A DNA stretch of 64,000 bases from Clostridia bacterium (lineage in GTDB: Bacteria; Bacillota; Clostridia; Oscillospirales; CAG-382). The position numbers and the translations under genes were made by a program. Below, piece after piece: positions 26,360 to 50,937 of this stretch. Within the stretch, counting starts at the first letter, position 1; each line of letters opens with the position of its first letter. Below the pieces are notes generated by a model. The model saw only the letters and a list, made by a program, of their open reading frames with translations, was not told where the DNA came from and did no database searches. The stretch is from positions 55,506-119,505 of the forward strand of contig JAFXEB010000003.1 in NCBI GenBank assembly GCA_017521025.1, in the 5' to 3' direction.

Positions 26360-26389
26360 TTTACTTATCCAGCGTCTTCATCGTGGGGA
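26360..26389. repeat. Left 30-bp direct repeat (attL-like); orphan copy of the lysS 3' end
   Basis: TTTACTTATCCAGCGTCTTCATCGTGGGGA is 29/30 identical to 50908-50937. Its reverse complement encodes ...PTMKTLDK*. Confidence 0.85.
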
Positions 26390-26727
26390 TTATCTTATGA
26401 AATGCACTAAAACTTGACATAGACATTGCATTTTGCATATATCCCTCTCAAAGGCACAAGATATTGTATTGTTCTATTTCTCGGTTTGCATTTGGCAACC
26501 CCGGTGTGTTGTGGCACAACACAATGAAAATTGGTAAAATTTTTGGTACGGTTGTTCATCAGGTTAGTTTGATTTTTCCTTGCAGACAACCAAACGCCTG
26601 TTGCTTCTTTTGGGTTGTCAAATCGGTATATACATCCAAAGTTGTAGAAATGTCAGCGTGTCCCATAATACTTCTTCACAACCATAAAGAAAAAAGCCTA
26701 GTTATACTAGACTTTTTCGACAGACTG

Positions 26728-26753
26728 AGCTGGGACTCCGAAGAGTCCCAGCT
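26728..26753 (-). terminator. Hairpin after the last island gene (possible terminator or RNA stabiliser; no U-tract)
   Basis: AGCTGGGACTC-(UUCG loop on minus strand)-GAGTCCCAGCT, 8 nt after the kinase stop codon. Confidence 0.35.
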
Positions 26754-26761
26754 TTCTGAAC

Positions 26762-29700
26762 TTATTTCTCGCGATATCTTACATAGTGTTGAACATTAGA
26801 AATCTCACCGCCATTAGTAACCTGCGTAGTCGATTCATTTCCTGCTGTCACCTTTTGGTATTGGTAGATCCTTTGGTAATCGGTGTATGTGCTTGTGTAG
26901 TAATCGAACCTGTACCACCTATACGAACCTTGCGATGATGCGTATGATGTTCTGTCGGTCACCTTGTACACACCCATACCTGACGTCGCAGATCCTACAC
27001 CGGAAGTGCCTTGATATACATAGTTTGTGGTAGAGGTAAATGCACCAAAGTACTTATAATTGTATCCTGTATGCTTGTTCTCAAGGCCTTTATAAGCGCA
27101 AATTATGCGATTACCAGCATTAGCACCACCACAATCATACATCCAGTGCCAATATACGTATCCCGCCCAAGAATTTGAAACCTCTCGTTTTGTAGTTCCG
27201 TTATCATAAGCTGTATATGGAGATTTACTAAAAGACTGATAAATGCTATTGGATGTATCAAACCCGTTGTGAAATGTTGCATAATTGGTCGATCCGCTTC
27301 CTGTCTGATTCCAATAACTACCAATTGGTGTCCATCCACTCAAAGAGGAGCTTGTTGATTCTGTTGTTTGGGTTCTGGTATATGTCCATTTGTTTTCTTC
27401 AACTTTGGCACTTGAAGGCACATTAGAGGCCAAAACCCAATCTGATAACGGATTCAAAGTCCATTGTGCATAAATTGTAGTGTTTCCTGCTCCCATGGTT
27501 GTCGAGGAAGTAACCTTACTACCACCACTTGCCGCAGTATACCATCCACTAAAGGTGTAGTAATCTCTTGTAGGTGTCGGCAATGACCCATATGTGCTTC
27601 CATAATTAACATTATTAGAAGAAGTCGCTACACTGCCGCCATTCGCATTATAAGAAAGTGTATAGGAATTTATGGTCCACTGTGCAAATAATGTTTGTGC
27701 AGATGTAATTGACACAGAGGTAGATGAAGTAATCTTTGTTCCTCCATTTGTTGACGTATACCATCCATTGAATGTGTATCCAGTTCTTGTGGGAGTGGGT
27801 AGAGTTCCATAGGTAGAGCCAAATGTTACAGTTGTACTTGATGTTGACACGCTACCTCCGTTAGCGTTGAAGGAGACCGTACTCTTAATAATGCTCCACT
27901 GCGCATACAATGTCTGGGCAGATGTGATTGACACCTTCGTCGACGAAGTCACTTTAGTTCCGCCACTCGCTGCAGTGTACCAACCGTTAAAGGTGTATCC
28001 GCTTCTTGTAGGAGTTGGCATAGAACCATAGGTAGCATCGTATGTTACATTTGCACTTGAGGTAGATACACTACCTCCGTTAGCATTGAAAGCAACAGCA
28101 TAACTGTTTGCCTTCCACTGTGCATAAAGTGTTTGGTTGGCGGCAGTGGAGTATGTGGAATCCCCAGAAATCTTTGTTCCACCACTTGCCGCAGTATACC
28201 ATCCATTGAAGGTATATCCTGTTCTACTTACGGTACCGAGAGCACCATATTTAGAACCAAACTGCACATTCTTACTTGAGGGTGCTGACCTGCCACCATT
28301 CGAGTTAAACGATACGGAGTATGTATTTGCTTTCCATATAGCGTAAATAGTATGATTAGATGGCGTTGTAATAGAAGTATTTGCTGTTACCTCCACACCT
28401 TCAGATTTTGCAGAATACCAACCCACAAAGGTATATCCTGTTCTCGTGGGAGTAGGCAGAGTTCCATATGCATCCGACAAATAAGTGGATTTACTGCTAG
28501 GATTTACTGTGCCACCGTTCGCATCGTATGTTACAGTAATTGGTTGCTTGCCCTTACTTACGTAAATAACAATGATGGAATCAGGCAGTTGAGCTGTACC
28601 TGCGCCAGGGGATTGGCTAATAACACTACCTGCAGGAACAGTAGAATCATAATTCTCAAGAACCGTGACCTTAAAGCCCTGCTCCTTTAATATTTCCTCT
28701 GCCTCGGCTTGGGACTTTCCAATCACATCAGCTACATCAATAGTTTCACGTCCACTGGATACAACAATTGTGATTTGATCACCACGTTTTACGCTGTCGC
28801 CAGCAGCAACACTTTGACTAAGAACATGACCTTCTGCTACGGCATCAGTCTTCTTGTATTCTACCACCACAACAAGCCCTTTGGTGTTTAGAGTGTTTTC
28901 GGCATTTTCCTTGCTCTGTCCAACAACATTAGGCATATCAAACGCAGCAGGGCCAATCGAGATTGTCAACGTGATCTTGGTACCTTCATCTAGCTTAGTT
29001 CCAGCTTCTACACTCTGCGCAATAACTGAACCATACGCAACATTATCATCATGTTTTTCAATAATGTCCGGTTCTGCTAATCCAGCTTGCAGAAGTTTTG
29101 AAATAGCATCATCTTTCGTATCCCAAATCAAATAGGGAACAACAGAAATACCATTTTCGGGAGACGCCACACCCTTACCGCTACTAATCATAAGCAAAAC
29201 AGTTCCGTTAATATCCATGTAAGAACCACCGACTGGAGTTTGCAAAATGATTTTACCCGCAGGAATATATTCGGATTCAATAGACCCGTCTGTAGAAGCG
29301 AGCAATTTTCCTTCCGAAATTAGTTGCAAGGCTTCATCTTTATACAATCCCTCAACATCCGGAACTGTTACGATATTTTCAGGTATTACAATTTCTTCCG
29401 TAAAATTTGAAAATTTAATAACGCCTGTCAACAGCAATGTGCTAAAAATCAAAATTACAGATAGGAAGGAAGGCGCAAGAATTTTTAACCACAATGGCCA
29501 AGAATATATATCTATCTTTTTAATCTTTCCATATATTCTCTTTACAGGAGGATCTGCATTAAGATCTTTAATAAATGTAGCGATGTCAGGTGTTCTATCC
29601 TCAATCCGAACATTCATTGCGTTAAGAATTGCATTTTCACGATTGGGGGAAATTTTCTTGTTTATCTTATGAGGCTCCTCCAGAATATCTTTGTTTTGGT

Positions 29701-30526
29701 TCTCACACTTTGTGCGACGTTCCATCGCATCTGGAGGTGTCTTACCGGTTATCATCTTGTATAAAGTAGATGCAATGGCATACACATCCGTATGCGGTCC
29801 CTGATCTCCTCTGCTTCGATACTGTTCCTCTGGAGAGTAACCCGGCTTGATAATAACAGTCAAGCTTCTACTATGAGATGTTGTAGCATATCTTGACGCG
29901 CCAAAGTCAATAAGCTTTACTTCGCCAGATTTTGTAAGGAATATGTTGTCCGGTGCAATATCTCTATGAAGCAATCCCTCGTCGTGAACAGCTTGAAGCG
30001 ATTCCATCACGGGCATCAGCATTGCTACAGCTACATCTTCAGGGATTGTCTTTTCTCTTCTCAGATACTCTGTCAGTGTTTCGCCATCGAGAAATTCCAT
30101 TATGATGTATGCAGTATCATTTTCTTCAAAGCTATCAAAGATCTTTACGATACCCTGCTCATTTTGAAACTTTGCCAGATGCTTCGCTTCCTCAACGAAC
30201 TTCCTAAGCCCGTCATGAAACTGTTCATTCTTCTCGCCGTTAAAAACGGTTACCTGAGATTGTCCGGGCATTCTTGTGGAGAATTCACCAGGCAAATACT
30301 CTTTAATAGCCACCTTTTGCTCAAGCTTGCCGTCCCAACCTAGATAGGTAACACCAAAGCCTCCGTAACCAAGAACCTTGCCAACGATATATCTATCATA
30401 CAGCAATGTACCCGGTTCAATATGGATTGCTTCCTCAGCATGAGTTCCTACGACATATCCACAATGCGGACATATCTCAAATTCATCGCCGAAGAGTTCC
30501 ATACATCCCAAACATCTTTTACTCAC
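26762..30526 (-). CDS. Ser/Thr protein kinase: N-terminal zinc ribbon, Hanks kinase, TM, 4 PASTA, 5 Listeria-Bacteroides (Flg_new) repeats, unknown C-terminal domain
   Basis: CLGCMELFGDEFEICPHCG; GYGGFGVTY...VAIK...HRDIAPDN...DFGAS...PGYSPEE. TM at aa 342-370. PASTA-like units at aa ~386-660. Five ~72-aa repeats at aa 663-1025. Y/W/T-rich tail at aa 1026-1254. Confidence 0.9.
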   Translation of the reverse strand: MSKRCLGCMELFGDEFEICPHCGYVVGTHAEEAIHIEPGTLLYDRYIVGKVLGYGGFGVTYLGWDGKLEQKVAIKEYLPGEFSTRMPGQSQVTVFNGEKNEQFHDGLRKFVEEAKHLAKFQNEQGIVKIFDSFEENDTAYIIMEFLDGETLTEYLRREKTIPEDVAVAMLMPVMESLQAVHDEGLLHRDIAPDNIFLTKSGEVKLIDFGASRYATTSHSRSLTVIIKPGYSPEEQYRSRGDQGPHTDVYAIASTLYKMITGKTPPDAMERRTKCENQNKDILEEPHKINKKISPNRENAILNAMNVRIEDRTPDIATFIKDLNADPPVKRIYGKIKKIDIYSWPLWLKILAPSFLSVILIFSTLLLTGVIKFSNFTEEIVIPENIVTVPDVEGLYKDEALQLISEGKLLASTDGSIESEYIPAGKIILQTPVGGSYMDINGTVLLMISSGKGVASPENGISVVPYLIWDTKDDAISKLLQAGLAEPDIIEKHDDNVAYGSVIAQSVEAGTKLDEGTKITLTISIGPAAFDMPNVVGQSKENAENTLNTKGLVVVVEYKKTDAVAEGHVLSQSVAAGDSVKRGDQITIVVSSGRETIDVADVIGKSQAEAEEILKEQGFKVTVLENYDSTVPAGSVISQSPGAGTAQLPDSIIVIYVSKGKQPITVTYDANGGTVNPSSKSTYLSDAYGTLPTPTRTGYTFVGWYSAKSEGVEVTANTSITTPSNHTIYAIWKANTYSVSFNSNGGRSAPSSKNVQFGSKYGALGTVSRTGYTFNGWYTAASGGTKISGDSTYSTAANQTLYAQWKANSYAVAFNANGGSVSTSSANVTYDATYGSMPTPTRSGYTFNGWYTAASGGTKVTSSTKVSITSAQTLYAQWSIIKSTVSFNANGGSVSTSSTTVTFGSTYGTLPTPTRTGYTFNGWYTSTNGGTKITSSTSVSITSAQTLFAQWTINSYTLSYNANGGSVATSSNNVNYGSTYGSLPTPTRDYYTFSGWYTAASGGSKVTSSTTMGAGNTTIYAQWTLNPLSDWVLASNVPSSAKVEENKWTYTRTQTTESTSSSLSGWTPIGSYWNQTGSGSTNYATFHNGFDTSNSIYQSFSKSPYTAYDNGTTKREVSNSWAGYVYWHWMYDCGGANAGNRIICAYKGLENKHTGYNYKYFGAFTSTTNYVYQGTSGVGSATSGMGVYKVTDRTSYASSQGSYRWYRFDYYTSTYTDYQRIYQYQKVTAGNESTTQVTNGGEISNVQHYVRYREK
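27452..28540 (-). repeat. Five tandem ~216-222-nt coding repeats (Flg_new / Listeria-Bacteroides repeat domains)
   Basis: The consensus xYxVxFNANGGSVSTSSxxVTYGSTYGxLPTPTRTGYTFNGWYTAASGGTKVTSSTxVxxxxxQTLYAQW recurs five times. Confidence 0.85.
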
Positions 30527-32502
30527 TTTTTCTCGACCTTCCCTTCAAACACGAACTTCTGGTGAATATCAGATATTGCAGCAAGATACTTTGACTGTAT
30601 TTTAGATTCAAAGCAAATTGCATTTACAGGAATCTGTCCATCATTACATTCGCCGATCATCAGATAGCTTTGGTACACATTACCAAGCATCCAAGAAAGC
30701 AACCTTTCTGCCGCTTCGATTTCGGCCTGGTTGCCATCGCCTATGCTCCACTCATATATGTATCTGCAATAAATTTCATCACTGTCGTAATACACATATG
30801 TCTTTTCATAATTTGTTAGAGTTGTCCTGATTTCGTTCAAAACCATCGTGGACGACAACATCACAGGACTTGTATTTTCGCTATTATTAAGGAACTCTTC
30901 CTTTTCGCAGAATCCTTCCAAGATAAAGTTTGCCTGTAGCAAACCAAGGTATCTGTCGTCATATGCAATATTTGTAGCGTCGAAATCATCAATGTTTCCA
31001 AAGTATTTATCCGAGTAGTCAATACAGCTGGCACCACTGGTTACAACATAAGCAATTGGCACTTCAATAGCAAGAGGCATTTGCTTTTTGTTGCTGTAAA
31101 AGTCGTTGTACTGACTTAGGAACATTGCGTTATTGAATTGATCAGAAGACAGCACATTATCAAGATCTGTTGCCTGCTCAATAATATCCGCAGGCAATCC
31201 AGAACTCTCAAATAATGTCGGCAGCTTCCCTTGCTTTTCCGCTTCTCTAATGCGGTTTTCATATTCCGATTCAGGTATTGCAATTACTTCTACCGTTACT
31301 CCTTCATATTTTTGCTCGAAGTCGGCCTTGATGGCAAGCATGGCATCTTCTTCGGAAGAACCGTCAGCTACAGAAAACCATACAACGATATCTGCCGGGT
31401 CAAGGAATTGCTCCTCCTGTTTATTGAGGTATGTATCGTATGCAAAGAAGGAGCCAATCAGCAGCACCAAGCAAGCAACTGCAATTCCAACAAACCTCTT
31501 TAGACTTCTCCGCTTCTTTTCTTTGGCAAGTGGAATAATCTTTCGCTCACCATTAATAGCACTCAAGAATTCCTGCACAGTTTTAAAGCGCATATGCTTC
31601 TCGATTGCCATAGCCTTCATAATCGCATTGCTAAGATTCTCCGAGACTAGCGGATTGAGTAGATGCGGAGGAACAACTTCGTCATTAATTTTACGATTAG
31701 TGGACTCATCGGGTTTCACACCGGTTAGCATCACATACAATGAAGCACCCAGAGCATAAATATCAGTCCACGGCCCGATATTCTTACTATTGTCATACTG
31801 CTCGGTGGGAGAATATCCAGGCTTAAGAATGATATCGATCACATCGTCGGTGCTGTCTGCTAATTTAGCAGCACCAAGATCCATCAGCTTAATCTTAATT
31901 TCTTTTCCGGAGCAAATATAAATATTATCCGGTGCGACATCTCTATGGACAATATTTTGTTCGTGCAAAGACTTAAGTGCATTTCCGACCTCGTTAGCAA
32001 TCATCAATGCAAAGTCAATATCAATTCTGTCTCCCGATTGATTAAGGTAATCGTTCAACGCAACACCACGAAGCAATTCCATAACGATATATGCTGTGTT
32101 GTTCTCTTCAAAGAATTCAAAAACATTGGGAATGCTTCTATGGGAACCGAATTTTGCCATATTTCTTGCCTCTGCAAGAAATCTTTCCTTCCGGTATTCG
32201 AATTCCTCCATTGACTTCTTTGTAATAATGAGGTTCTTCAATCCCTCTGCTCTTGTGACAAGGCGACTTACAAAGAATTCCTTCACAGCAACAATTGTCT
32301 CGAGTTTCAAATCCCACGCACTATAAACAATACCAAAGCCACCAGATCCAACAGCTTGTCCCAAAATATATCTGTTAGCCAGTATCGTGCCGGGCACAAG
32401 GTGGATTGGTTCCTTTGGCTTAGTTATCTCAACACTGCCGCAATGTGGGCAAACCTGAAATGCATCCTCATATTCCTTAAAGCAGGCATAACATCTCTTC
32501 AT
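30523..32502 (-). CDS. Ser/Thr protein kinase: N-terminal zinc ribbon, Hanks kinase (DLG variant), TM, SBP-like ectodomain
   Basis: CYACFKEYEDAFQVCPHCG; GSGGFGIVY...VAVK...HRDVAPDN...MDLGAAK...PGYSPTEQ. TM FVGIAVACLVLLIGSFFAY. The ectodomain VVWFSVADGS...FEQKYEGVTVEVIAIPESEYENRI...KLPTLFES resembles family-1 solute-binding proteins. It overlaps the downstream kinase gene by 4 nt. Confidence 0.85.
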   Translation of the reverse strand: MKRCYACFKEYEDAFQVCPHCGSVEITKPKEPIHLVPGTILANRYILGQAVGSGGFGIVYSAWDLKLETIVAVKEFFVSRLVTRAEGLKNLIITKKSMEEFEYRKERFLAEARNMAKFGSHRSIPNVFEFFEENNTAYIVMELLRGVALNDYLNQSGDRIDIDFALMIANEVGNALKSLHEQNIVHRDVAPDNIYICSGKEIKIKLMDLGAAKLADSTDDVIDIILKPGYSPTEQYDNSKNIGPWTDIYALGASLYVMLTGVKPDESTNRKINDEVVPPHLLNPLVSENLSNAIMKAMAIEKHMRFKTVQEFLSAINGERKIIPLAKEKKRRSLKRFVGIAVACLVLLIGSFFAYDTYLNKQEEQFLDPADIVVWFSVADGSSEEDAMLAIKADFEQKYEGVTVEVIAIPESEYENRIREAEKQGKLPTLFESSGLPADIIEQATDLDNVLSSDQFNNAMFLSQYNDFYSNKKQMPLAIEVPIAYVVTSGASCIDYSDKYFGNIDDFDATNIAYDDRYLGLLQANFILEGFCEKEEFLNNSENTSPVMLSSTMVLNEIRTTLTNYEKTYVYYDSDEIYCRYIYEWSIGDGNQAEIEAAERLLSWMLGNVYQSYLMIGECNDGQIPVNAICFESKIQSKYLAAISDIHQKFVFEGKVEKK

Positions 32503-32508
32503 GAGCCT

Positions 32509-33471
32509 TTACTCTCCTTTTGGCATAAACTCTTCCCAAGAGAATCCTTCTCCGCATAGAGGCATAAACATAAACTTACTATCACCCAACTCAATAACAT
32601 CTCTTGTAGCAAGTTGCTTCGACTCCGTGATGTAATCCTCGTTCAAGTATGTAAGACCGCTACTATCACCAGGTTGCAAGAAGAAGTTCCTCTTCTTGGG
32701 CTCGTACACAATCAATGCATGCTTAATTCTTGAAATGCTATTATCGTCCGTAATCACAATTCTATTTTCTTCGCTTCTGCCTATAGAATTTTTTCCTGCG
32801 AAAATGCTGAAGCACTCACCAAAATGACAGCCACCAATGCAGACAAGCCAACCTACAACGGGTTCTGCAAAACGCTTAGGTTGATTTTGAGCAGGCGTAG
32901 AACCTGTAGCAGAACTAAAATAGCTCATTGTCTTTCCTTCGTTGCTTGCAGAAGCATTCTTTACCGCCTCCTTCAGCGAGGACGGCGCTTCATTCTGCTT
33001 GGGTTCTTCCTTCGGAGTCTCATTTGCCTTTACCGGTTCTTCAACAACTATCGGCGCATCACTTGCAGGCACAACATTTTCAGATTGCTTTGTTTGAGCC
33101 GCCACATTTTCCACAACATTACTTGCTTTCGATTCGCCGTTATTGTCAGAGTGAGAAGATGTCTGCCAAAAATCCAATGTAGGATTCTTCTTAAGAGGAG
33201 GAGTAGATTGGTTCTCCGGAACCTTCCGTTCCATTACATCAGTAGGCGTACTTCCATTGCCAAATTCAGATTGCGGAACTCTTGATGGAGTTTTGATTAT
33301 AGGCTGAACATCAGCATCTTTCTCCTTGCGGCCTCTTCCCCAAAAGCCCTTCTTTTCTTCTTTGACCGGTGCCGCATTTTCAGCAACCATAGCGGTCTCG
33401 CCACAATGCGGACAGGTGCTATAGGAATCTCCATCAAAGAAATGGCCGTTTTTACATCTAATTACATTCAT
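32509..33471 (-). CDS. Zinc-ribbon / disordered linker / C-terminal FHA-domain protein
   Basis: RCKNGHFFDGDSYSTCPHCG; low-complexity P/E/K/N-rich middle. The FHA-like C-terminus reads ...NSIGRSEENRIVITDDNSISRIKHALIVYEPKKRNFFLQPGDSSGLTYLN... Confidence 0.75.
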   Translation of the reverse strand: MNVIRCKNGHFFDGDSYSTCPHCGETAMVAENAAPVKEEKKGFWGRGRKEKDADVQPIIKTPSRVPQSEFGNGSTPTDVMERKVPENQSTPPLKKNPTLDFWQTSSHSDNNGESKASNVVENVAAQTKQSENVVPASDAPIVVEEPVKANETPKEEPKQNEAPSSLKEAVKNASASNEGKTMSYFSSATGSTPAQNQPKRFAEPVVGWLVCIGGCHFGECFSIFAGKNSIGRSEENRIVITDDNSISRIKHALIVYEPKKRNFFLQPGDSSGLTYLNEDYITESKQLATRDVIELGDSKFMFMPLCGEGFSWEEFMPKGE

Positions 33472-33485
33472 TATTTACCCCTCCG

Positions 33486-34283: not shown

Positions 34284-34294
34284 TTAGATCCCTC

Positions 34295-35368: not shown

Positions 35369-35381
35369 ATAGACACCTCTT

Positions 35382-36141: not shown

Positions 36142-36152
36142 ACGATTTCCTC

Positions 36153-37790: not shown

Positions 37791-37811
37791 CTCCGATCAA
37801 ACACAAGCTGT

Positions 37812-38914: not shown

Positions 38915-38927
38915 GATTCGTCCCTTC

Positions 38928-39818: not shown

Positions 39819-39848
39819 AACATTCACCTCCCACACCCTACCTCAATC

Positions 39849-40106: not shown

Positions 40107-40121
40107 ATTTCTATTACCCCT

Positions 40122-41919: not shown

Positions 41920-41933
41920 CTCAACATTTCTTT

Positions 41934-44372
41934 CTACTCACCAACATACACGGCACAATTCGCATAATATTTCCCGTCTTTTGAGACCACTTTAATGCTT
42001 GCTGATCCGGGACCATTAGCCACAACCTTGCCGTCACTAACGGATATAATACTTCCGTCGGAACTCGACCAGGTAAAATCATCTGCATCATAACCTTCAG
42101 GATACTCTATGCTTACCACAGCATTCTCACCGATAGATAGGTAGATGTAGTAGGAAGATATCACCATGTTTGTAGTACCGTTACTTTCATTGCCAGCGTT
42201 GTTTTCTTCCTGTTGTTCTTCTTCATTTATAGGAATTTCCAGACGCTCCTGCCACAACACAACCTCTTTTTCGGGAAGTATTTCAAACTCCACTGCTGCA
42301 CCAGGTGCATTACTACCTTCGGGTCCAACAATCGTCCATGTATATTTAAGGTTCAACTTGTTAGCCAGCGTATTCTTATCTGTCCCAATTTTAAGTTTTA
42401 CTATCGGAACATATCCATTAATTCCATACGAATGGGATGTTTTTCGTTCGATAATAAATGCATCATCCGTTTCCACCCATTCTGTATAGTATTCAAGCCC
42501 ATGTCTAGCCTTAACATTAACTGCTGCAGAAATATCTACGTTTATAAAAGGAATTGTACAAAATGAAAGTTGAGCACTTAGGTTCGGTCCTGCCTCAAAT
42601 TCAAGCTCTGCCTCCGCACCAGCCGAAGAATCTCGAGTGCAAGTTTTCTTTGTTTTTCCTGATTTATATTCTGCCTTTGTGTTGTTTGTAATAGAGGCTT
42701 TCACGGAAATCTCACCATTCAATTCCGCATAAAGACTCACTTCCAATGTTAGTGTGCCTACTCCTCCCAAGGAAATCGGAATAGAACATATCGTAAGTTC
42801 TTCCTCCAGTTTGCCCTTTACAGAAAGTGACACCGACGCACCATAATTCGTCTCAACTGTGAAACTCTCGATGCCCGTAGGAATTCCAGTATCGGCACCT
42901 AAAATCTTCGCTGTTTTGATCTTATATGTTGGTATAACGTACAGGTCTGTTATAGAAACAGAACCAACTATCTCATAACCTCCGCTAAACTTGTTTGTAA
43001 TATTTGGAATATTTTCCTCTCCCGACTGGCTTGTTACATATGGCTTGTTCTTGTCCGGAACAAAATTTTCATCACTCTTCTGCACCCCATACAAAGCGTC
43101 GCGTAACTCATCAGCTGTAATAACGCCCTTTTTATATGCCTCTATCGCCTCATCATTGCTGTAAGGATCAGACCCAAAAAGACTTTTATCTGGAAATACA
43201 CTTTTCTTTGAAAACCATTCGCCAAGTTCTGGACTAGCACCAGTCTCTGTCAGCAACTGTTCGATAGCCAAGGATTGGCTGCCCCATTGTGGGCTAAGGC
43301 TTACGGTTCCTTTGGTAAAATTAAATGAGGCAGTAAAAGACAATGCCTGATCCTTACTTGTTCCGATACCCAAAGGGATCACTGCATAGTCGGATTTATA
43401 ATTACCTGCTAAATTCTGCAAAGAATAGTTATTGTTCGAACTGGGCGAGTAAGAAAGACTAACTACACTAGGACCACTATTTGAGTTGTAGGAGACAGGA
43501 GACACGCCTCCACCTGTATGGGTAATTGTTACACCACTCGCAGGAACAATATCCTCAAACTCAGGAATTGCAACACCGGAATACTCTATTTCATCAAAAA
43601 CCTCATGGAATTCAGGTGTGCAGGTTTCGATGGTATATGTTCCATCGCCGTTAACCAATACACTTACCACTTTAATTGCAACACCATCTGGGTTTTCCGT
43701 GGTCCCCGGTGCAATTAAAACATCATCAATATTTGGTGTTAGATTGGATACAACATATTTGTTTTCACCATTGCTAACAATGTTGGATGTTTGTCGTTGA
43801 TCAGAAACTTCCTCATTAACCACTACCTTGTCTATGGGAGTTACTTCTTGTGTTAAATATAGGAACTTCGCTGATGATAATATGGATTGGCATTCTTCCT
43901 CGGTTACATATCGATCATAATCTAGGCCAGCAGGCACTATGTTGTTGGCAATTGCATAGGCCAAAGCCTTGTCTTCCTTTGTTTCGCCCTCATAGGTTGC
44001 AACATTAGAGCCAACAGCATAAACAGCGGTAATGGCGACATATTTCAGAGATACCAACTCATCTGGGTTGAATGTCTCTTCAGTAACAGGAAATACTTCC
44101 CACTCCACACACGATTGAACATATGTAAAGGCTTGATTAGATGCCTGAATATCTGTGAAATATGGTTCGGAACTGAGGCATTCATCCATGCCAAAACAAA
44201 TGGCCAACTTCTCCGCCCATTCTATTTTGGTGATATAATTTCCGTTGTCGACATTGTCAGTCCCATTGCCGTTAGACTCTCCATTATCAAATGAAAAATG
44301 TGGTAATGAGCAAGAAGATAATGTAGAAACCAACAATATAACAGCAAGAATTAAAGAAAGTAGCCGCTTCAT
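41934..44372 (-). CDS. Large lipoprotein with C-terminal Big_2 (Ig-like) domain, unknown function
   Basis: MKRLLSLILAVILLVSTLSSC lipobox. C-terminus: VVSIEYPEGYDADDFTWSSSDGSIISVSDGKVVANGPGSASIKVVSKDGKYYANCAVYV. Confidence 0.65.
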   Translation of the reverse strand: MKRLLSLILAVILLVSTLSSCSLPHFSFDNGESNGNGTDNVDNGNYITKIEWAEKLAICFGMDECLSSEPYFTDIQASNQAFTYVQSCVEWEVFPVTEETFNPDELVSLKYVAITAVYAVGSNVATYEGETKEDKALAYAIANNIVPAGLDYDRYVTEEECQSILSSAKFLYLTQEVTPIDKVVVNEEVSDQRQTSNIVSNGENKYVVSNLTPNIDDVLIAPGTTENPDGVAIKVVSVLVNGDGTYTIETCTPEFHEVFDEIEYSGVAIPEFEDIVPASGVTITHTGGGVSPVSYNSNSGPSVVSLSYSPSSNNNYSLQNLAGNYKSDYAVIPLGIGTSKDQALSFTASFNFTKGTVSLSPQWGSQSLAIEQLLTETGASPELGEWFSKKSVFPDKSLFGSDPYSNDEAIEAYKKGVITADELRDALYGVQKSDENFVPDKNKPYVTSQSGEENIPNITNKFSGGYEIVGSVSITDLYVIPTYKIKTAKILGADTGIPTGIESFTVETNYGASVSLSVKGKLEEELTICSIPISLGGVGTLTLEVSLYAELNGEISVKASITNNTKAEYKSGKTKKTCTRDSSAGAEAELEFEAGPNLSAQLSFCTIPFINVDISAAVNVKARHGLEYYTEWVETDDAFIIERKTSHSYGINGYVPIVKLKIGTDKNTLANKLNLKYTWTIVGPEGSNAPGAAVEFEILPEKEVVLWQERLEIPINEEEQQEENNAGNESNGTTNMVISSYYIYLSIGENAVVSIEYPEGYDADDFTWSSSDGSIISVSDGKVVANGPGSASIKVVSKDGKYYANCAVYVGE

Positions 44373-44439
44373 AGCATATCCTCCTCGATAAGCAGGTTAT
44401 ATATCAGGGATGAATCCATCCCATTAATTTCAAATTTAG

Positions 44440-44469
44440 GCAGGTGGGTGTGGGATCACACCCACCCGC
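44440..44469 (-). terminator. GC-rich hairpin after the WXG100 pair (attenuator or partial terminator)
   Basis: Minus strand: GCGGGTGGGTGTG-loop-CACACCCACCTGC. It pairs perfectly only on the minus-strand RNA, through a G-U pair. The following U-tract is weak (CTAAATTTG). Confidence 0.5.
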
Positions 44470-44482
44470 AGTGTATTTTGCA

Positions 44483-44782
44483 TTACTTAAATGCCTGTGC
44501 GTTGGTCTGAATTGCGCCTTCAGTGGATTCGTAGCTCTGTGCGGTGTTCACGAGGAACTTTGCGTAGGATTCAACAACATTCTTGTATTCCTCAAAGCGA
44601 GGCTTCATTGCATTCATAGCAGCTCTGATATCGGATGCTGCGTCACTCTTCCAAGTGGCTCCCAGGTCATTCATGCTCTTATTGATGTCAGCAAGCTTGC
44701 TGTCCAAAGTGGAGTTGATGTTGCGAACCTTCTCTGCGGTGTCAAGCAACACTTGGGTTGAAATCTGAATAGTATCTGCCAT
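44483..44782 (-). CDS. WXG100 family protein (motif variant W-K-S)
   Basis: 99 aa, MADTIQISTQVLLDTAEKV...LGATWKSDAASD...; size and helical-hairpin layout match EsxA-like proteins. Confidence 0.75.
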   Translation of the reverse strand: MADTIQISTQVLLDTAEKVRNINSTLDSKLADINKSMNDLGATWKSDAASDIRAAMNAMKPRFEEYKNVVESYAKFLVNTAQSYESTEGAIQTNAQAFK

Positions 44783-44796
44783 TATCTTCTTCCTCC

Positions 44797-45099
44797 TTAG
44801 TTGACCAGTTTGCGAGCCTCGGACACAACTGTATCCTGAGTGTCGCGATACGCTTTTGCGCTCTTTCTGAGAAAATCAGCATAGTTGAGCATCAAGGTAT
44901 GCATCTTTGCAAAGTCATCCTTGAAGCCATCAATCTGATTCACAAACGCCACATTGTCTTTTCCGCTCCATGTAGAGGCCATCGCATTTGTCTCAGAATA
45001 GAGCTGATCATACTGCGTCTTGTAATCGGCTGCCAAACTCTCAATTCTGCCTGCGGTGGACTCCAACTGTTCCGGGTTAACCTGAATTGTTCTTGTCAT
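44797..45099 (-). CDS. WXG100 family protein (EsxA/EsxB-like)
   Basis: 100 aa, MTRTIQVNPEQLESTAGRIES...MASTWSGKDNVAF (W-S-G). Confidence 0.85.
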   Translation of the reverse strand: MTRTIQVNPEQLESTAGRIESLAADYKTQYDQLYSETNAMASTWSGKDNVAFVNQIDGFKDDFAKMHTLMLNYADFLRKSAKAYRDTQDTVVSEARKLVN

Positions 45100-45183
45100 T
45101 TTTTAATGACCTCCTTATAATTTTATCAACATTAGCTCACGGAAGACGAGCTAATATATGAACATATAACAATCTGCCTATTC

Positions 45184-45435
45184 TTAGATAAGCATAAGTT
45201 TTGTACCGTTTCCAATCTCCAGTTCAAAAACGGTACCGTTAATATCGAGTATCTCTCCGGTTGTCTTGCGTGCGAGCACCGTATCTCGGGACGGTATGAA
45301 CTGTCCTTCTGATAGTTCAGATATCGCACGCTTTATCAGTTCCGTAACCTCAAATATTTGTGACTGGGTCGGGATGAAAATATCGTAGGACCTGTTGAGA
45401 ATTGGAATGTAAACATTTACAAGCACCTTGTTCAT
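45184..45435 (-). CDS. YukD/EsaB-like ubiquitin-fold T7SS protein
   Basis: 83 aa, VNVYIPILNRSYDIFIPTQSQIFEVTELI...GTKLMLI. It overlaps the essC stop by 4 nt. Confidence 0.7.
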   Translation of the reverse strand: MNKVLVNVYIPILNRSYDIFIPTQSQIFEVTELIKRAISELSEGQFIPSRDTVLARKTTGEILDINGTVFELEIGNGTKLMLI

Positions 45436-48400
45436 TCTAAATCAGCCCCTTTCTTTTCAGCCGAAAGCAGTTTTGCAAGAATCGGACGATTCCGGTAGAT
45501 GTAATAGCCAAAGTGTTTGCCAACATCTTCATACATTTCGCTTGTGATCTTGTTAATCTTAAATGCGAACTGATCTGCGACACCTTCACCTACCCAAATG
45601 CCATCTGCACCAATGATGTGCTGTTTATACCACTGATCGTATTCATACTTCTTTATCTGAGAAGCCGAATCGCAAAGCACAAAATGGATCTTATATATCG
45701 GATCTGCCTTGACCAGTAATGTCGCCAACTTATCCTTTGCATCATCGCTCAGTTGTTCGAAGAGTCGCTTTACGCCAAAAATGACATAGCAACGCTCATC
45801 GAACTGTTCCAGTACAGAAGCATCTAAATTTGCATCCTTGTACAGATTGTTTCGAAGTACCATTTCATTGAACATCTCCAAAACAATATCAGCAAAGTTT
45901 AACTTAGTCACAAATTTCTCACACTTGTCAAGTTCTTTCTCTGTATCCACTACCGTAACATGGCATCCTCTTGCAATAATAGGAACCAGTTCCTCCACAA
46001 AGTCGACCATTTCATGTGCGTCTTGAGAAAGCACAGGAAGAACGACTTTCTTTTCAAGGTTAAAGGTGATGATTTCAAGAGAATTCTTTGCCACGCCCAC
46101 CGGAATCGATGCCAAACCATTAATTTTTTGCTCAACGAACTCCGAGTCAACGATCTGCGGAAGAATCGGAATGGGCTTAGCCGTTACAGTTGTTTTAGCC
46201 TTGATACCTTCACAGAACTGACGAATGAAATTCTGTACATCCTGTTCCTCAGTACAATAGGCTGTCTGGAATTCATAAACTCGATCCAGTGCAACAAGGC
46301 CACGCCCTTTATGCTTCGAAGGAATTACGCCATCGTTCTTACCAACTATCGTTACATAGTCCGTTGCATCATTTAACTGCATAGTAAGCAACATTTTAAA
46401 ATTCTGCTGAACTCTGTAACGAACAGCATTTGAGTGCGTAGCTGTAACAACAAAGTAAATACCATATTTAACTCCGTCTCGTGTTAGAAGCGCAAACTCC
46501 TCCTGATAATCTTCCATTTGCTCCGCAAATCCGGAGAAGTTGTTCAAAACCACGACAATATTCGGCACAGTTTTTCCGCTGTTCTTGCAGTAGTTGGTAT
46601 AATCACCGCCATAAGAAGAAAACAAACTGCGTCTCGCTTCCATCTCCTTCAGCAACATTTTCAGCAAGTTGACGCATTTCTCATCATCAGATGCGGTTAC
46701 AACCCCACCAACATGTGGTGCAGAAGAAAACGCCTTTAGCGTCTCGGAGCCATAATCCATTAAATATAGATTTACTTCGACCGGTGTGTGATTTTTAATT
46801 AACGAATAACAGAGTGTGGTCGCAAATGTTGTCTTGCCGTTTCCTGTTGCACCAAAGACAAGGCAGTTACCCTCTGCGGAAAGTGGTATTGTAAGAACGT
46901 CTTGTTTTTGATTGAACGGGTCGTCATACTCACCCACAACTGGATTAAGCACCGTACCGTACGATCTCTTCGCATATTTTTCTTCCAACTGATCCACATA
47001 AACGTGGGAGGGAATCGGTTCCAACCACAACGTTCTCGCAGTAACACCTTCGTCAACTGCCAAATCCGAGAGGTACTTTACAACAGAAACAATTTGTTTA
47101 ATCTTGCTTCCGCTTGTTGCTTTTGGGTTTGGTTTAACACTAATGATCGGTCGCCCAAGCGAATCAACAACTTGTATGCTTGCATCAATAGGCTTCTCGA
47201 CAACATCACTCGGTTGATATTCCGCTCCACACCACGCAGACTGTCCCATCGCAAAAAGCTCGTTAAATCCAACTTGCAAGTAGAATCTACCCGTTTGAGA
47301 AAGTTCTGCGGCATCTGGACACTTTATCATATCCTGCGAATCGGACTTTTCCTGAACCTTCAAGCAGACTCTGAAACGGCTGTTACTCCAAATTTGGTCA
47401 TCAACAACGCCACTCGGTTTCTGCGTAGCAAGAATCAAATGAACACCTAGGCTACGACCAATTCTTGCCGCACTGATCAACTGTTCCATGAACTCAGGCT
47501 GTTGTGTCTTCAATTCTGCAAACTCATCCGAGATGATGAATAGATGTGGCATCGGATCGCTTACAATTTTTTCTCGATAAAGTTGTTGATACTTATAGAT
47601 ATCCATTGTTCCTTCATTAGATATCCTCCGTGCCTCGTTAAACACTGCCTGTCTTCTTCTAAGTTCACTTTGAATGGACACCAATGAACGAGTAATTGCT
47701 GCACCATCAAGATTCGTAATCGTTCCCGCTAGGTGCGGCAACTTAATTCCCTTGTCTGAATTTTCAAAAGCACCCGTCAAGCCGCCACCTTTATAGTCAA
47801 TCAGAATAAAGGATACTTCGTCAGGATGATAATTTACCGCCAAGGATAAAATATATGTAATAATGAATTCCGATTTGCCGGAACCGGTCATGCCAGCAAC
47901 CAATCCATGAGGGCCGTGATACTTTTCGTGCAGATCAAGCATAAAACTATCGCCATCCGCTCCGATGCCTATAGGGGTCTGCAGTGTCTTGGTTGGATTA
48001 TTCTCTTTCCATCTGGCGAGAGAGTTGAGATGCTCAACCTTACCAACATTGAACATTTCCAAGAATGTCATCATGTTGGGCAAAACAAAACTTTTCTCTG
48101 CAACATCAAGTTCAATGTTTGCGAGTTTTGTTGACATATTTTCAAAGACCATCTTGTTTGCAACATCTGCAGCAAAGGAAACTTGTTTTCCAGACGTATC
48201 ATCCTTGTCAAAGAGCTTAGAATTCGTTCCGTTAGCGTGTATGATAGTTCTTGTTTCTTTTGGGAAATCACTAAATTTGTCACCGGTGATGATTGCGGTA
48301 AAGCCGAGGTTATCTTCACTCAAAATTTGTTTTAAAGCCGTGCATTTTTTTCTTAATGTGTCACTAGTAATGATACAAACATAATACGGCGAAAACTCTT

Positions 48401-50006
48401 CATCGCGGTGTTGAGACAGGTTTTTCCTTGTTCCCACCTCTTTTTCAAGAATATTCGAAATTTCTTTTACATCATCGAGAGTGTGTGCATGATATCTTAT
48501 TGTTCTGCTGTTATTCCACGCATGAGGCAAATATTTAGTAAATCCCCAAGTCGCATCGTCTTCATCTCCTGTGATCATAACGAGTTTGACTTCGTCATAT
48601 CCATGCAAAGCAACCATTTGCAAAATGAGCGACATGATCATATTGTCACGGCATTCCTTGTCTCCATAAACGCCGATTGCCACATTCTCTGTAAGAGAAA
48701 TACTAATAGGCACATTCTTAAGTTGCTTCGGCTCTTCCGCAAGTGCCAACATCGCATTTTGTAAGGAGTCATCGTCCATTGTGAACTTCTTGTCTTGGTA
48801 CTTTACATCGAGATTCATATTGACCGTGCCCGTACCTAGGCGTAGTCTTAAGAAATCGCTCTGCCCAATTGAACGTTCCCATAAGTTTGGCTTTGTCCGA
48901 ATAACTCTTTCCAGGCACTCCTCTTGAGATATGAATGTCTCTTTGAGAATTCCCGCCTGTTGTTTTGCAATATCCTTAATTTGATCGCCTATTTCGTTCA
49001 GATAGGCAAAGTATTTCTTCTGTCGTTTCTTTTCGTGCTTAATTTTCTCTTTTTTCTCATGCTTCTTAGTGAGAATCGGCCAGAGCACAGTTCCTAAAAG
49101 CATACTGACGGACATAACCAATGTAGGCAGGGCCTGTGTAATTTTTCCGCCGTTAGCAATCACGTTGGACACAGAAAGAATACCCGTACTAACTGAGGTC
49201 ATTGCCATAGTCAGTGAAGGCCCTAGCATCAAGGCCAGCGGCACAGTATCAATTTTCTGTGTCTGTGGGGGAGGATCGATATGTATCTCCTCTCGCTTTA
49301 CCTCTCGATGAAAACGGGGAGATCTAAAGAAAAACTTTTTTTCCGGAAGCTCAGCCACCTCTTCCGATGGCTGAACTGCCTGCTGTTCATATCTTGAAAG
49401 CCCCTCGGCTCTGATTTTTAGTTGCATATCAGGATTATTAATTGCGAAATAGGAATCACCTATCACAATTTTTAATCCCATAATGTAGATGAAATCGCCA
49501 GGATTCAGCTTTTGAGTTTGAATGCGGAATCCGTTTACATATGTACCGTTTCTACTTCCTAGATCAGTAATCGACCAATTTTCACCATCGTATATCAATT
49601 TTGCATGATAGGTTGAAGCAAATCCATTCGAATAGCAAAAGTTATTATCTTCAGCTCGTCCAATCGTGAAAACAGCGCCCTCATGAACCACAATCTTTGA
49701 CAATGTCTGTCTCGTTTCATCAATCGGTTCAGTAAAAAGGATAACCCTCTCATCGCTATTTTCAATTCTGATATTCAAGAAACTATTTATTGATAGTTCC
49801 GCCTTCTCTATGTGGGTGTTCTTTTCACCTAAAATAGCAACCTTCTTGTTAGACTTTGCGCACCACTTGCCATCATCCGCTTCAATGCTAACCAGTTGAC
49901 GTAGTGTTCCCTTTGCATCGAAGTCGTTCAGCCAATATTGTCCTTTCACTTTATCCGGCAATGTTAAGCTAAACATCTGCTCTGCCTTTATAAGATTAAC
50001 TATCAT
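45432..50006 (-). CDS. essC: EssC/YukB-type T7SS FtsK/SpoIIIE ATPase (N-terminal FHA domains, 2 TM, three P-loop domains)
   Basis: 1524 aa. FHA: FTIGRAEDNNFCYSNGFASTYHAKLIYDGENWSITDLGSRNGTYVNG. TM helices near aa 255-310. Walker A sites GMTGSGKSEF and GATGNGKTTF, plus a third degenerate domain. Confidence 0.9.
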   Translation of the reverse strand: MIVNLIKAEQMFSLTLPDKVKGQYWLNDFDAKGTLRQLVSIEADDGKWCAKSNKKVAILGEKNTHIEKAELSINSFLNIRIENSDERVILFTEPIDETRQTLSKIVVHEGAVFTIGRAEDNNFCYSNGFASTYHAKLIYDGENWSITDLGSRNGTYVNGFRIQTQKLNPGDFIYIMGLKIVIGDSYFAINNPDMQLKIRAEGLSRYEQQAVQPSEEVAELPEKKFFFRSPRFHREVKREEIHIDPPPQTQKIDTVPLALMLGPSLTMAMTSVSTGILSVSNVIANGGKITQALPTLVMSVSMLLGTVLWPILTKKHEKKEKIKHEKKRQKKYFAYLNEIGDQIKDIAKQQAGILKETFISQEECLERVIRTKPNLWERSIGQSDFLRLRLGTGTVNMNLDVKYQDKKFTMDDDSLQNAMLALAEEPKQLKNVPISISLTENVAIGVYGDKECRDNMIMSLILQMVALHGYDEVKLVMITGDEDDATWGFTKYLPHAWNNSRTIRYHAHTLDDVKEISNILEKEVGTRKNLSQHRDEEFSPYYVCIITSDTLRKKCTALKQILSEDNLGFTAIITGDKFSDFPKETRTIIHANGTNSKLFDKDDTSGKQVSFAADVANKMVFENMSTKLANIELDVAEKSFVLPNMMTFLEMFNVGKVEHLNSLARWKENNPTKTLQTPIGIGADGDSFMLDLHEKYHGPHGLVAGMTGSGKSEFIITYILSLAVNYHPDEVSFILIDYKGGGLTGAFENSDKGIKLPHLAGTITNLDGAAITRSLVSIQSELRRRQAVFNEARRISNEGTMDIYKYQQLYREKIVSDPMPHLFIISDEFAELKTQQPEFMEQLISAARIGRSLGVHLILATQKPSGVVDDQIWSNSRFRVCLKVQEKSDSQDMIKCPDAAELSQTGRFYLQVGFNELFAMGQSAWCGAEYQPSDVVEKPIDASIQVVDSLGRPIISVKPNPKATSGSKIKQIVSVVKYLSDLAVDEGVTARTLWLEPIPSHVYVDQLEEKYAKRSYGTVLNPVVGEYDDPFNQKQDVLTIPLSAEGNCLVFGATGNGKTTFATTLCYSLIKNHTPVEVNLYLMDYGSETLKAFSSAPHVGGVVTASDDEKCVNLLKMLLKEMEARRSLFSSYGGDYTNYCKNSGKTVPNIVVVLNNFSGFAEQMEDYQEEFALLTRDGVKYGIYFVVTATHSNAVRYRVQQNFKMLLTMQLNDATDYVTIVGKNDGVIPSKHKGRGLVALDRVYEFQTAYCTEEQDVQNFIRQFCEGIKAKTTVTAKPIPILPQIVDSEFVEQKINGLASIPVGVAKNSLEIITFNLEKKVVLPVLSQDAHEMVDFVEELVPIIARGCHVTVVDTEKELDKCEKFVTKLNFADIVLEMFNEMVLRNNLYKDANLDASVLEQFDERCYVIFGVKRLFEQLSDDAKDKLATLLVKADPIYKIHFVLCDSASQIKKYEYDQWYKQHIIGADGIWVGEGVADQFAFKINKITSEMYEDVGKHFGYYIYRNRPILAKLLSAEKKGADLE

Positions 50007-50322
50007 CTCTATCCTCCCCAGTATTCATTTGGCGTTCCAGCAAAAGAATTTGCTCCACAACGTTCGGATACTTCTTGACGAATTTCTTATTTCCTTTATC
50101 AAAATCATTATTACATTTAAAAAAGAACACTACAGCCAGAAACAAAGTCCATGTCATCGGCTGTAATTGCCGTTCAATCAACGATATCATTTGCCTACTA
50201 ACACCAACCTTGTTTGCAAGCTCCGTCTGTGAAACCCCCATCTCTTTTCTAAGATGCGGTAATGCCTGGGAAAGTATTGAAATCATTCGCTGCTGTTCCT
50301 CGCTGATTTTATATTCTGCCAT
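49996..50322 (-). CDS. XRE-family HTH regulator with C-terminal TM segment
   Basis: LRKEMGVSQTELANKVGVSRQMISLIERQ (HTH_3), followed by the hydrophobic segment WTLFLAVVFFF. It is the first gene of the island operon. Confidence 0.75.
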   Translation of the reverse strand: MAEYKISEEQQRMISILSQALPHLRKEMGVSQTELANKVGVSRQMISLIERQLQPMTWTLFLAVVFFFKCNNDFDKGNKKFVKKYPNVVEQILLLERQMNTGEDRDDS

Positions 50323-50411
50323 AAAATCAATTCACACCCTTCACATGCATATCCTTTTTGATATATCCACCTACATAAAGAAGCATCTATATACTTCCTA
50401 TGTTATTTCCC

Positions 50412-50441
50412 ATTATAGACCTTTGACTAACTGTTTGTCAA
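50412..50441 (-). promoter_or_regulatory. Near-consensus promoter for the island operon
   Basis: Minus strand: TTGACA (50441-50436), 18-nt spacer, TATAAT (50417-50412), about 90 nt upstream of the XRE start. Confidence 0.55.
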
Positions 50442-50454
50442 TATATTTGTAAAA

Positions 50455-50477
50455 TTTTGCAAAACTATTTTGCAAAA
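50455..50477. promoter_or_regulatory. Two copies of the palindrome TTTTGCAAAA just upstream of the -35 (operator candidate)
   Basis: TTTTGCAAAA at 50455-50464 and 50468-50477, 13 bp centre to centre. Confidence 0.4.
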
Positions 50478-50825
50478 ACACTATTCTAGTCGAATAGCAG
50501 AATGCACTTAACGCCTATATATATTCGAAAATAACGGATTGCGTAATTAGGCGCCTCTTGTTATTACACAAATATAGAGTTCAGCAGTCCGTCGCTCTAC
50601 CGACTGAACTAAAAAGGAATGTATGAATATTGTAGAGATTTCAAACGCTTTCGCCCTCCCAACAATTTACACTATTTGTGCTGTGCGTCTCTATAGCCGA
50701 CTGTTAACAGTCAAATGCTTCAACAAATTTTTGCTATGTATGAAGAAAGCGCCGTGCGGATTGCACGGCGCTTAATCTTTTAATCTATCATAGTGACTTT
50801 TCTCTGCAAATCTCCCCGGAAAATT

Positions 50826-50853
50826 GGCGTAGTAGTTGGCGTAGTGGCGTAGT
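50826..50853. repeat. Three direct GGCGTAGT repeats next to the right island boundary
   Basis: GGCGTAGT at 50826, 50838 and 50846, followed by the partially complementary GGCTACTAAACTACC. Confidence 0.5.
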
Positions 50854-50907
50854 TTTTCAGGCTACTAAACTACCAAAAAACCGCATAACTACTGGGTTTT
50901 TCTGAAA

Positions 50908-50937
50908 TTTACTTGTCCAGCGTCTTCATCGTGGGGA
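50908..50937. repeat. Right 30-bp direct repeat (attR-like) = functional 3' end of lysS
   Basis: TTTACTTGTCCAGCGTCTTCATCGTGGGGA is 29/30 identical to 26360-26389. Confidence 0.85.

Follow-up and report, generated by a model that had tools for sequence, protein, structure and literature searches.

The 64,000-nucleotide window analyzed here (contig JAFXEB010000003.1, positions 55,506 to 119,505 of the forward strand, in the Clostridia bacterium assembly GCA_017521025.1) carries a 24.5-kb island at the 3' end of lysS, the gene for lysyl-tRNA synthetase. The target gene (50909..52411, minus strand) is an intact open reading frame (ORF) of 500 amino acids (PF00152, 5.9e-98); on the far side of the island, also on the minus strand, stands the gene of a VUT-family transporter (25500..26249), the ancestral downstream neighbor of lysS as seen in the lysS-VUT adjacency of the related loci L183 and L094. 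Between the two copies of a short direct repeat lie 22 ORFs, all on the minus strand (an earlier sequence-only reading of this DNA had the strand right and put the number at about 21); they include a type VII secretion system of the firmicute type (T7SSb) and a phospho-signaling module. The region is very probably a decayed integrative genomic island that resembles a cis-mobilizable element (CIME), and a short remnant of its tyrosine integrase is still present beside one of the two repeats.

The repeat TTTACTT[A/G]TCCAGCGTCTTCATCGTGGGGA measures 30 bp and occurs in exactly two copies on the same strand, at 26360-26389 and 50908-50937, with 29 of 30 positions identical; the chance expectation for such a 30-mer is none (100 shuffles). 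In the lysS sense it reads TC-CCC-ACG-ATG-AAG-ACG-CTG-GA[C/T]-AAG-TAA-A. The lysS-proximal copy (attL, 50908..50937, minus strand) forms the end of the intact gene plus one nucleotide: it comprises two nucleotides of a Phe codon, the codons for P-T-M-K-T-L-D-K, the stop codon, and one extra nucleotide. The distal copy (attR, 26360..26389, minus strand) is an orphan lysS tail, followed by a hairpin with a 10-bp stem and a U7 tract (26313..26347, minus strand; dG -22.1 kcal/mol, z -6.5), then by a near-consensus TTGCCA-17-TATAAT promoter match (26306-26278) ahead of the VUT gene; L183 and L094, too, have an equivalent terminator-like hairpin after the lysS tail. The only mismatch, A at 26367 and G at 50915, distinguishes the synonymous Asp codons GAT and GAC. 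On these points the sequence-only reading was sound: it had reported the repeat pair, the synonymous mismatch, and the distal copy as the ancestral 3' end of lysS with its native terminator, and it erred only slightly in giving the right copy as the stop codon and the last nine codons, since the first of these is represented by two nucleotides and one further nucleotide lies past the stop.

The repeat sits on a known attachment site. In Streptococcus, integrative and conjugative elements (ICEs) insert at the lysS 3' end by means of a tyrosine integrase, leaving repeats of 13-17 bp (PMC4701971). The enterococcal vanD ICEs and genomic islands also insert in lysS, with the 13-bp repeat TTCCC[g/a/c]AC[a/g]ATGA located 17 bp from the 3' end; these elements have an integrase and circular forms, and apparently come from gut Clostridiales (PMC8301612, PMC10765050). 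In the window, the 13-bp core TTCCCCACGATGA (lysS sense; 50926..50938, minus strand) matches this published repeat and is followed by exactly 17 nt, the last three of them the stop codon TAA. The 30-bp repeat starts 1 nt inside the core, whose positions 2-13 are identical in both copies (at attR they occupy 26378-26389); it is thus placed on the published lysS attB core TTCCCNACRATGA. Among viral contigs, the lysS-tail pattern gave no match.

What had made the island look exceptional was the reported lack of any integrase, recombinase or relaxase ORF between two flanks, of 372 nt (left) and 586 nt (right), that were taken to be non-coding. As far as intact genes are concerned this holds: Pfam and NCBIfam find no intact integrase, relaxase, coupling protein or VirB4 among the 22 products. 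The left flank, however, contains the last 38 codons and the stop codon of a Tn916-type tyrosine integrase (RSIMGHADISTTLDVYTDLT...KIKLT*; 26559..26675, minus strand), here called Delta-int, which includes the LGH...Y box of the catalytic tyrosine and reads towards attR, 172 nt away. Six-frame translation of the flank gives its sequence as RSIMGHADISTTLDVYTDLTTQKKQQAFGCLQGKIKLT (minus strand, 26562-26675), then stop codons. The right flank (50323-50907) shows no recombinase-like fragment, either by Pfam or by tblastn with the integrase P0260 and eight integrases of T7SS-linked loci, so that the flank searches proposed earlier were positive on the left and negative on the right. The view that no trace of a recombinase exists is therefore not upheld; the recombinase is truncated rather than absent.

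The assignment of Delta-int is based on longer homologs. Its own Pfam alignment covers positions 153-171 of the 172-position PF00589 profile and is weak (E 0.12). A tblastn search against plasmids returned 41 records and, among the matches listed, 13 of 15 lie under genes annotated as integrases. A protein search with X-padded Delta-int gave a single match, P0121, which is a 61-residue C-terminal integrase stub on another contig; an exhaustive HMMER search with P0121 in turn gave 351 significant matches, all at the extreme C-terminus of the target, and each of the 10 long ones that were scanned (347-427 residues) carries PF00589, three of them together with PF02920, the arm-binding domain of Tn916. 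The 413-residue protein P0260 also has both domains; Delta-int is 69% identical to its C-terminus over 35 residues (by tblastn, 65% over 40 residues, E 3e-11), and 95% identical over all 38 residues to two further proteins, P0246 and P0261. Across the whole window, tblastn with P0260 yields Delta-int as the sole integrase match and no other part of the enzyme.

This integrase family is tied to lysS-type cores. In L182, the full-length gene of P0260 is followed by two TACCAATTTT repeats and, 155 nt past its stop codon, by TTCCCGACCATGAAG..., which encodes the lysS-like tail FPTMKSINT*; in L095, a 61-codon stub is followed after ~175 nt by the core TCCCGACAATGAAG, and a distance of ~175 nt is also found in L181. 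In the latter locus (2270-3229) P0261 is a fusion, with a MutS_I-like N-terminus, the integrase C-terminus, and read-through of the arm into ...IIPTMKPLAEG, while the 173-residue P0246 is a fragment of an HsdS-like specificity subunit fused in frame to the integrase stub. The stubs of P0246, P0261 and the window have nested truncation points, at ~68, ~57 and 38 codons. L095 further contains a second core 1.25 kb upstream (1763 and 3011), arranged in tandem, with a YpsA-like gene and the 61-codon stub between the two; past the second core the frame stays open and runs into sequence similar to a tRNA-binding domain, and the target gene there may therefore have a C-terminal extension.

The comparison with L181 defines the anatomy of attR. 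Along the minus strand, identity is 38.5% upstream of the stub (26676-26720), rises to 97.1% in the stub (26562-26666), is 83.1% in the arm (26390-26561) and 13 of 14 nt in the core (26376-26389), and falls to 40.5% in the host tail and the sequence downstream of it (26340-26375). Homology thus ends inside TCCCCACNATGAAG, beyond which each locus continues with the lysS tail of its own host; this break identifies the distal repeat as attR and maps the crossover to the published core. The same break accounts for the GAT/GAC mismatch, by putting the native tail at attR and the island's tail at lysS: GAT (26367) and the stop codon beside the native terminator would be the host's, GAC (50915) and the sequence 3' of the core would have been supplied by the island. 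Between Delta-int and the core, the integrase-side arm (26390..26558, minus strand) has a TACCAR pair (26531-26548), ~150 nt upstream of the core, whose position is kept in all four integrase-side arms (window, L181, L095, L182); the pair may represent putative arm-type binding sites.

The arm on the lysS side (50323..50907, minus strand) has a GC-rich hairpin (50747-50773) and three occurrences of TGGCGTAGT (50824-50853); these were considered as a counterpart of the sites in the integrase-side arm and rejected, there being no match. Over 50323-50907 there is no DNA similarity to L182, L181 or L095. Nearer the cargo, a perfect TTGACA-18-TATAAT promoter match (50412-50441) lies upstream of an XRE-family regulator gene, and immediately beside this promoter match the palindromic ATTTTGCAAAA occurs twice with a spacing of 13 nt (50454-50477), forming a likely, predicted operator.

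In composition, the island stands apart from its surroundings, as had been proposed from spot counts: its G+C content is 0.411 inside the repeats and 0.485 and 0.492 outside, pooled G+C at third codon positions (GC3) is 0.385 inside and 0.587 outside, and tetranucleotide distances from the backbone are larger by a factor of 2-3 within it. These values bear out the description of the island as AT-rich, foreign DNA. The backbone itself is clostridial, since an S10-Clostridia ribosomal-protein leader (RF03136, 47.3 bits), an ordinary feature, precedes the ribosomal-protein operon at 6484-6556; this leader was the only Rfam match in the whole window, and none was found in the island flanks.

An empty site, which the sequence-only reading had proposed to look for, exists in a relative and has no counterpart within the species. 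L183, reached through VUT homologs (its VUT protein is 85% identical), has the order FtsX-M23-S41-greA-lysS, a gene of 170 codons on the opposite strand, and VUT-SDR, with a single lysS tail followed by the terminator hairpin, a gap of ~0.7 kb between lysS and VUT, and no island; L094 has the same backbone. Among contigs of the same species, collected by exact-protein look-ups with LysS, GreA, VUT and SDR, all that span either junction carry the island; the others end before a junction, except for a variant from a near-identical strain, L093 (GCA_045591545.1, 1-760, corresponding to window 26343-26366 and the sequence to its left). This contig is 99.5% identical to the window across VUT and diverges inside the orphan tail, sharing only AAGTAAAAGC... 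of it; the upstream sequence is unrelated and very AT-rich, with two small membrane ORFs and neither stub nor core before the contig ends. The left junction is thus polymorphic within the species. More widely, in species-representative genomes scanned with LysS, the pair greA-lysS is conserved and the genes downstream vary, and a regular-expression search for tyrosine recombinases downstream of lysS in 80 species loci gave a single candidate, L064.

Two relatives show smaller duplications of the lysS tail. In L094 (8236-9301), a 276-residue gene product of unknown function is bracketed by a 72-bp duplication (98.6% identical); L183 (5200-5420) is 97% identical to L094 through lysS and has one copy of the tail and no cassette, so that the two form an insertion polymorphism. 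L094 has neither integrase nor stub, and its repeat extends ~40 nt upstream of the att core, which is not obviously explained by plain site-specific recombination. In L053 (11417-12674), from another species, a 63-bp duplication (98.4%) surrounds one ATP-grasp gene associated with sugar transfer (PF14397, 1.3e-46), and here too a recombinase is absent. The one mismatch between the repeat copies falls on the 3' side of the TTCCCNACNATGA core in all three cases, the window, L053 and L094.

These observations point to the following course of events. A circular element whose attP resembled the final 30 nt of lysS would have entered the chromosome through the action of a Tn916-type tyrosine integrase with specificity for the 3' end of that gene, the crossover falling inside TCCCCACGATGAAG. 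This insertion would have provided lysS with a new, synonymous tail at attL, and displaced the native tail, its terminator and the VUT gene by 24.5 kb, to attR. The junctions can be reconstructed accordingly, attB as the body of lysS joined to ...TTCCCCACGATGAAGACGCTGGATAAGTAAAAGCAAAACGAAATCACC, and attP as window 26390-26420 leading via the core to 50907-50880. Later, most of the integrase gene beside attR would have been lost, leaving the last 38 codons (the Delta-int breakpoint abuts the terminators of the last cargo gene, 26690-26753), and the island would now be unable to excise by itself. The claim of a horizontally acquired, att-type insertion at the lysS 3' end is in this way supported by the core, the stub, the homology break with L181, the empty site of L183 and the composition. 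Since an integrase stub is present and the repeat lies on a published lysS attB core, a new mechanism of insertion need not be invoked: the island belongs, in decayed form, to a known class, the lysS-targeting att-flanked elements. It has the 3'-end insertion with a direct repeat that holds TTCCCNACRATGA 17 nt from the gene end, a target gene kept whole by a tail that the element supplied (the 500-residue ORF, with GAC/GAT as the only difference), and an integrase family associated with lysS-type cores; of a functional tyrosine integrase of its own beside the att site, only the last 38 codons are left, which makes it a decayed derivative rather than a functional member.

Several observations weigh against this picture of a decayed lysS-specific element. 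On its own, Delta-int is weak on Pfam, and its identification depends on homology to longer proteins. No excision, circular form or empty allele is seen within the species, among the contigs sharing a LysS, GreA, VUT or SDR protein; the relative with the empty site is fairly distant (85% amino-acid identity in VUT, ~75% nucleotide identity in lysS), and L005, whose LysS is the most similar (92%), continues past lysS with unrelated genes. The lysS-side arm shares neither sequence nor repeat motif with the arm of the integrase-bearing L182, and the two ends of the island may therefore come from different elements. Moreover, no remnant of a conjugation or mobilization gene indicates which type of element decayed.

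Of the other explanations, an artifact of assembly is practically negligible: no point supporting it was found, and both junctions are 100% identical across independent metagenome assemblies from different samples and different assemblers (5 loci for the lysS-side flank, 8 for the VUT-side flank), so that the repeat, whose reality the sequence-only reading had wished to see checked, is genuine. Homologous (Campbell-type) or illegitimate recombination of lysS-tail DNA, as may have occurred in L053 and L094, is a highly improbable source of the tail duplication. These two loci show that single genes can be bracketed by such duplications (63 and 72 bp) with neither integrase nor stub, yet their repeats begin 30-40 nt upstream of the core; that of the window begins at the core itself, stands beside the stub of a lysS-targeting integrase family at attR, and loses its homology to the independent element L181 inside the core. 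It is also quite improbable that the T7SS locus is ancestral here and was lost later from the island-free L183 and L094. Two lineages alone do not allow the polarity of gain and loss to be read, and the island is present in every sampled same-species contig that spans a junction; the strongly foreign composition (most plainly in GC3), the absence of lysS near all of 80 related T7SS loci, and the insertion signature formed by the orphan tail and the integrase stub nevertheless speak for a gain, and even a loss, if by excision, would presuppose an integrative element of this kind.

The remaining alternative concerns not the origin but the present state of the island, which could be a true CIME that is still mobile, excised and co-transferred by a lysS-specific integrase that is supplied by an ICE or island elsewhere in the cell or by one integrated in tandem, with stub and arm retained for the binding sites they provide. 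We consider this unlikely, although a number of features would fit it. The att core is intact on both sides, within a repeat that is 29/30 identical; the module of stub, arm and core recurs with different cargo and with different host lysS tails (window, L181, P0246, L095); and L095 has two cores in tandem, as accretion would give. The stub is much better conserved than the arm (3 differences in 105 positions against 29 in 172; Fisher p = 3e-4), and all three changes in the stub are synonymous, for which the neutral chance is ~0.01. Mobilization of CIMEs by accretion is documented (PMC5704250, PMC7563491), as is the formation of circles by vanD islands in lysS (PMC8301612). However, no empty allele, nor any alternative allele carrying this island, appears in any same-species contig; the truncation points vary (38, ~57, 61 and ~68 codons), which independent decay explains equally well; integrases that all remained functional until recently would be expected to show synonymous-only change just as well; and the lysS-side arm has TGGCGTAGT three times without the TACCAR pair that L182 shows on that side. 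Wider proposals built on continued mobility are likewise to be taken with reserve. It is doubtful that T7SS "weapon cassettes" in gut Clostridia are integrase-less passengers that keep the att core, the arm and the 3' end of the integrase gene; that they are moved, in trans or by accretion, by the integrase family that carries vanD into enterococci is a tentative conjecture; and selection to stay mobilizable is a rather improbable reason for the recurrence of stub-arm-core modules and the synonymous-only divergence of the stubs.

The cargo of the decayed island begins, in the direction of transcription, with the gene of an XRE-type helix-turn-helix (HTH) regulator (49996..50322; this and all further cargo genes on the minus strand), an HTH gene being found in the same position in L101, L130, L135, L153 and L163. 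It is followed by the core region of the T7SSb (41321..50006), which has both the EssC-type FtsK/SpoIIIE ATPase with N-terminal FHA domain and the WXG100 substrates and YukD/EsaB ubiquitin-like protein of this system. EssC (45432-50006) scores 1051.7 bits against TIGR03928, for which the NCBI equivalog cutoff for firmicute T7SSb EssC is 778.4, and contains PF01580 and PF00498, the latter being the N-terminal FHA domain. The YukD-like protein (45184-45435) remains below its cutoff (23.3 against 27 bits), and its position is conserved in most related loci; the two WXG100 proteins adjoining EssC (44797-45099 and 44483-44782) are above the Pfam gathering cutoff. An 812-residue Big_2 protein and proteins of 129 and 62 residues complete the core region. 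Neither these three nor the DUF6382 protein described below gave a match to EssA, EssB or EsaA, by hidden Markov model (HMM) or by PDB sequence search.

The next region (35060..41261) encodes probable substrates, effectors and accessory proteins: a T7SS-associated protein with DUF6382, Zn-ribbon and FHA domains (40122-41261), two candidate effectors, namely a microbial-type PARG-like protein (38928-39836) and a Mbeg1/phospholipase-like protein of 545 residues (36153-37790), two WXG100-like proteins of 99 and 102 residues (35382-35681 and 35060-35368; PF06013 marked on the called gene products), a 158-residue protein, a Zn-ribbon protein, and two proteins of 253 and 116 residues of unknown function. 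Within 35060-37790, the lipase-like gene is followed by that of the 158-residue protein and then by the two WXG100-like genes, with the PARG-like gene nearby; such an arrangement hints at a lipase toxin exported by the T7SS and having small helical partner proteins. PDB sequence searches with the 545-residue lipase-like and the 812-residue proteins gave no match.

The signaling module (26762..35029) closes the cargo, with two PP2C phosphatases (34295-35029 and 33486-34283), an FHA protein (32509-33471), and two Hanks-type serine/threonine kinases, one with an SBP-like domain (30523-32502) and one with four PASTA domains and Flg_new (Listeria-Bacteroides) repeats (26762-30526). The nearest homologs on the kinase side are P0132 (88%), P0137 (85%) and P0133 (83%). 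Overall, the T7SS locus thus comprises two Hanks kinases, two PP2C phosphatases and three FHA-domain proteins, EssC included, and genes resembling FHA379 and PP2C recur together with EssC-YukD-WXG100 in dozens of gut-metagenome loci (L101-L166). Such a gene set suggests that T7SS activity may be controlled by threonine phosphorylation, for which the control of the type VI secretion system (T6SS) by PpkA, PppA and Fha provides an analog. Judged by these families, a secretion apparatus coupled to this module under the XRE regulator would most likely serve contact-dependent antagonism, or secretion coupled to envelope stress, in its host, a gut Clostridia bacterium.

Related T7SS clusters were recovered at 80 loci, with EssC 34-67% identical and the gene order conserved in most. 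The recovered flanks (up to 10 kb) contain lysS in none of the 80, for which reason the arrangement in the window is lineage-specific. In six of them (L130, L142, L102, L135, L153, L163), where EssC is among the most similar to that of the window (58-65% identical), HTH-EssC is immediately preceded by the gene of a full-length tyrosine recombinase, and in the two examined (L130, 1686-9511; L142, 2940-9227) this is preceded by VirB4-like, VirD4-like, sortase and CHAP genes. The presence of recombinase and conjugation genes beside HTH-EssC indicates that the T7SS module has been linked to ICEs repeatedly, with another integrase family and another target.

The integrase remnant and the published attB together remove an apparent anomaly, namely a duplication of att sites with no recombinase. 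They also document that the lysS attB and integrase system of the enterococcal vanD elements has been at work in uncultured Clostridia of the gut, from which those elements are presumed to be drawn. That a T7SSb locus can ride as cargo of such an island bears on the spread of systems for interbacterial competition in the gut, and its coupling with kinases, phosphatases and FHA proteins could make the question of what the FHA domain of EssC senses a testable one.

Among known systems, the enterococcal vanD elements (Tn6711-Tn6713, ICEVREfm_vanD), for which an origin in gut Clostridiales is proposed (PMC8301612, PMC10765050), share with the island the lysS 3'-end target with the core TTCCCNACRATGA 17 nt from the end, an imperfect repeat with one single-nucleotide difference, a composition unlike that of the host, and a host range that includes gut Clostridia; the likeness is one of site, repeat, composition and host range. 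The vanD elements are 112-143 kb long, with an intact integrase, circular forms and in some cases conjugation genes, whereas the island has 24.5 kb and a 38-codon stub; its repeat is 30 bp long, extending through the stop codon, against 13 bp in the vanD elements, and its cargo is a T7SS in place of vanD. The Streptococcus ICEs in lysS, with conjugation modules of the ICESt3 type, a tyrosine integrase and lysS repeats of 13-17 bp, resemble it in the target site and, unlike the island, are full ICEs.

CIMEs are defined by the retention of att sites and the loss of recombination and transfer genes (PMC5704250, PMC7563491). Like those of S. thermophilus, S. salivarius and S. agalactiae, the island has attL and attR at the 3' end of a housekeeping gene with cargo between them; the two sites are retained as the 29/30 repeat, and no functional integrase or excisionase, relaxase, coupling protein or VirB4 is found in the 22 ORFs, in the six-frame translations of the flanks or by tblastn. 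The streptococcal CIMEs are reported to measure 1.2-13 kb and have mostly been detected in tandem with an ICE or an integrative and mobilizable element, while the island measures 24.5 kb, stands alone in the window, and belongs to an uncultured Clostridia bacterium; it shows decay of the recombination module and no relic of transfer genes. Related T7SS loci do adjoin ICE genes; the island may derive from an ICE or an integrative and mobilizable element, or else from an island that had only an integrase. Compared with the firmicute ess/yuk loci of the T7SSb, the cargo has the same EssC with N-terminal FHA and FtsK-type ATPase domains, the YukD-like protein and the WXG100 proteins, and differs in having no HMM match to EssA, EssB or EsaA and in adding two Hanks kinases, two PP2C phosphatases and two further FHA proteins. 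A parallel for the island as a whole is Aux3, a T6SS locus of Vibrio cholerae (bioRxiv 10.1101/868539), in which a secretion weapon is likewise located on an att-flanked, largely degraded element that is fixed in a lineage; it differs in being a T6SS of a Gram-negative host, in still having a P4-like integrase, truncated after the catalytic Tyr, and in that its excision has been shown experimentally.

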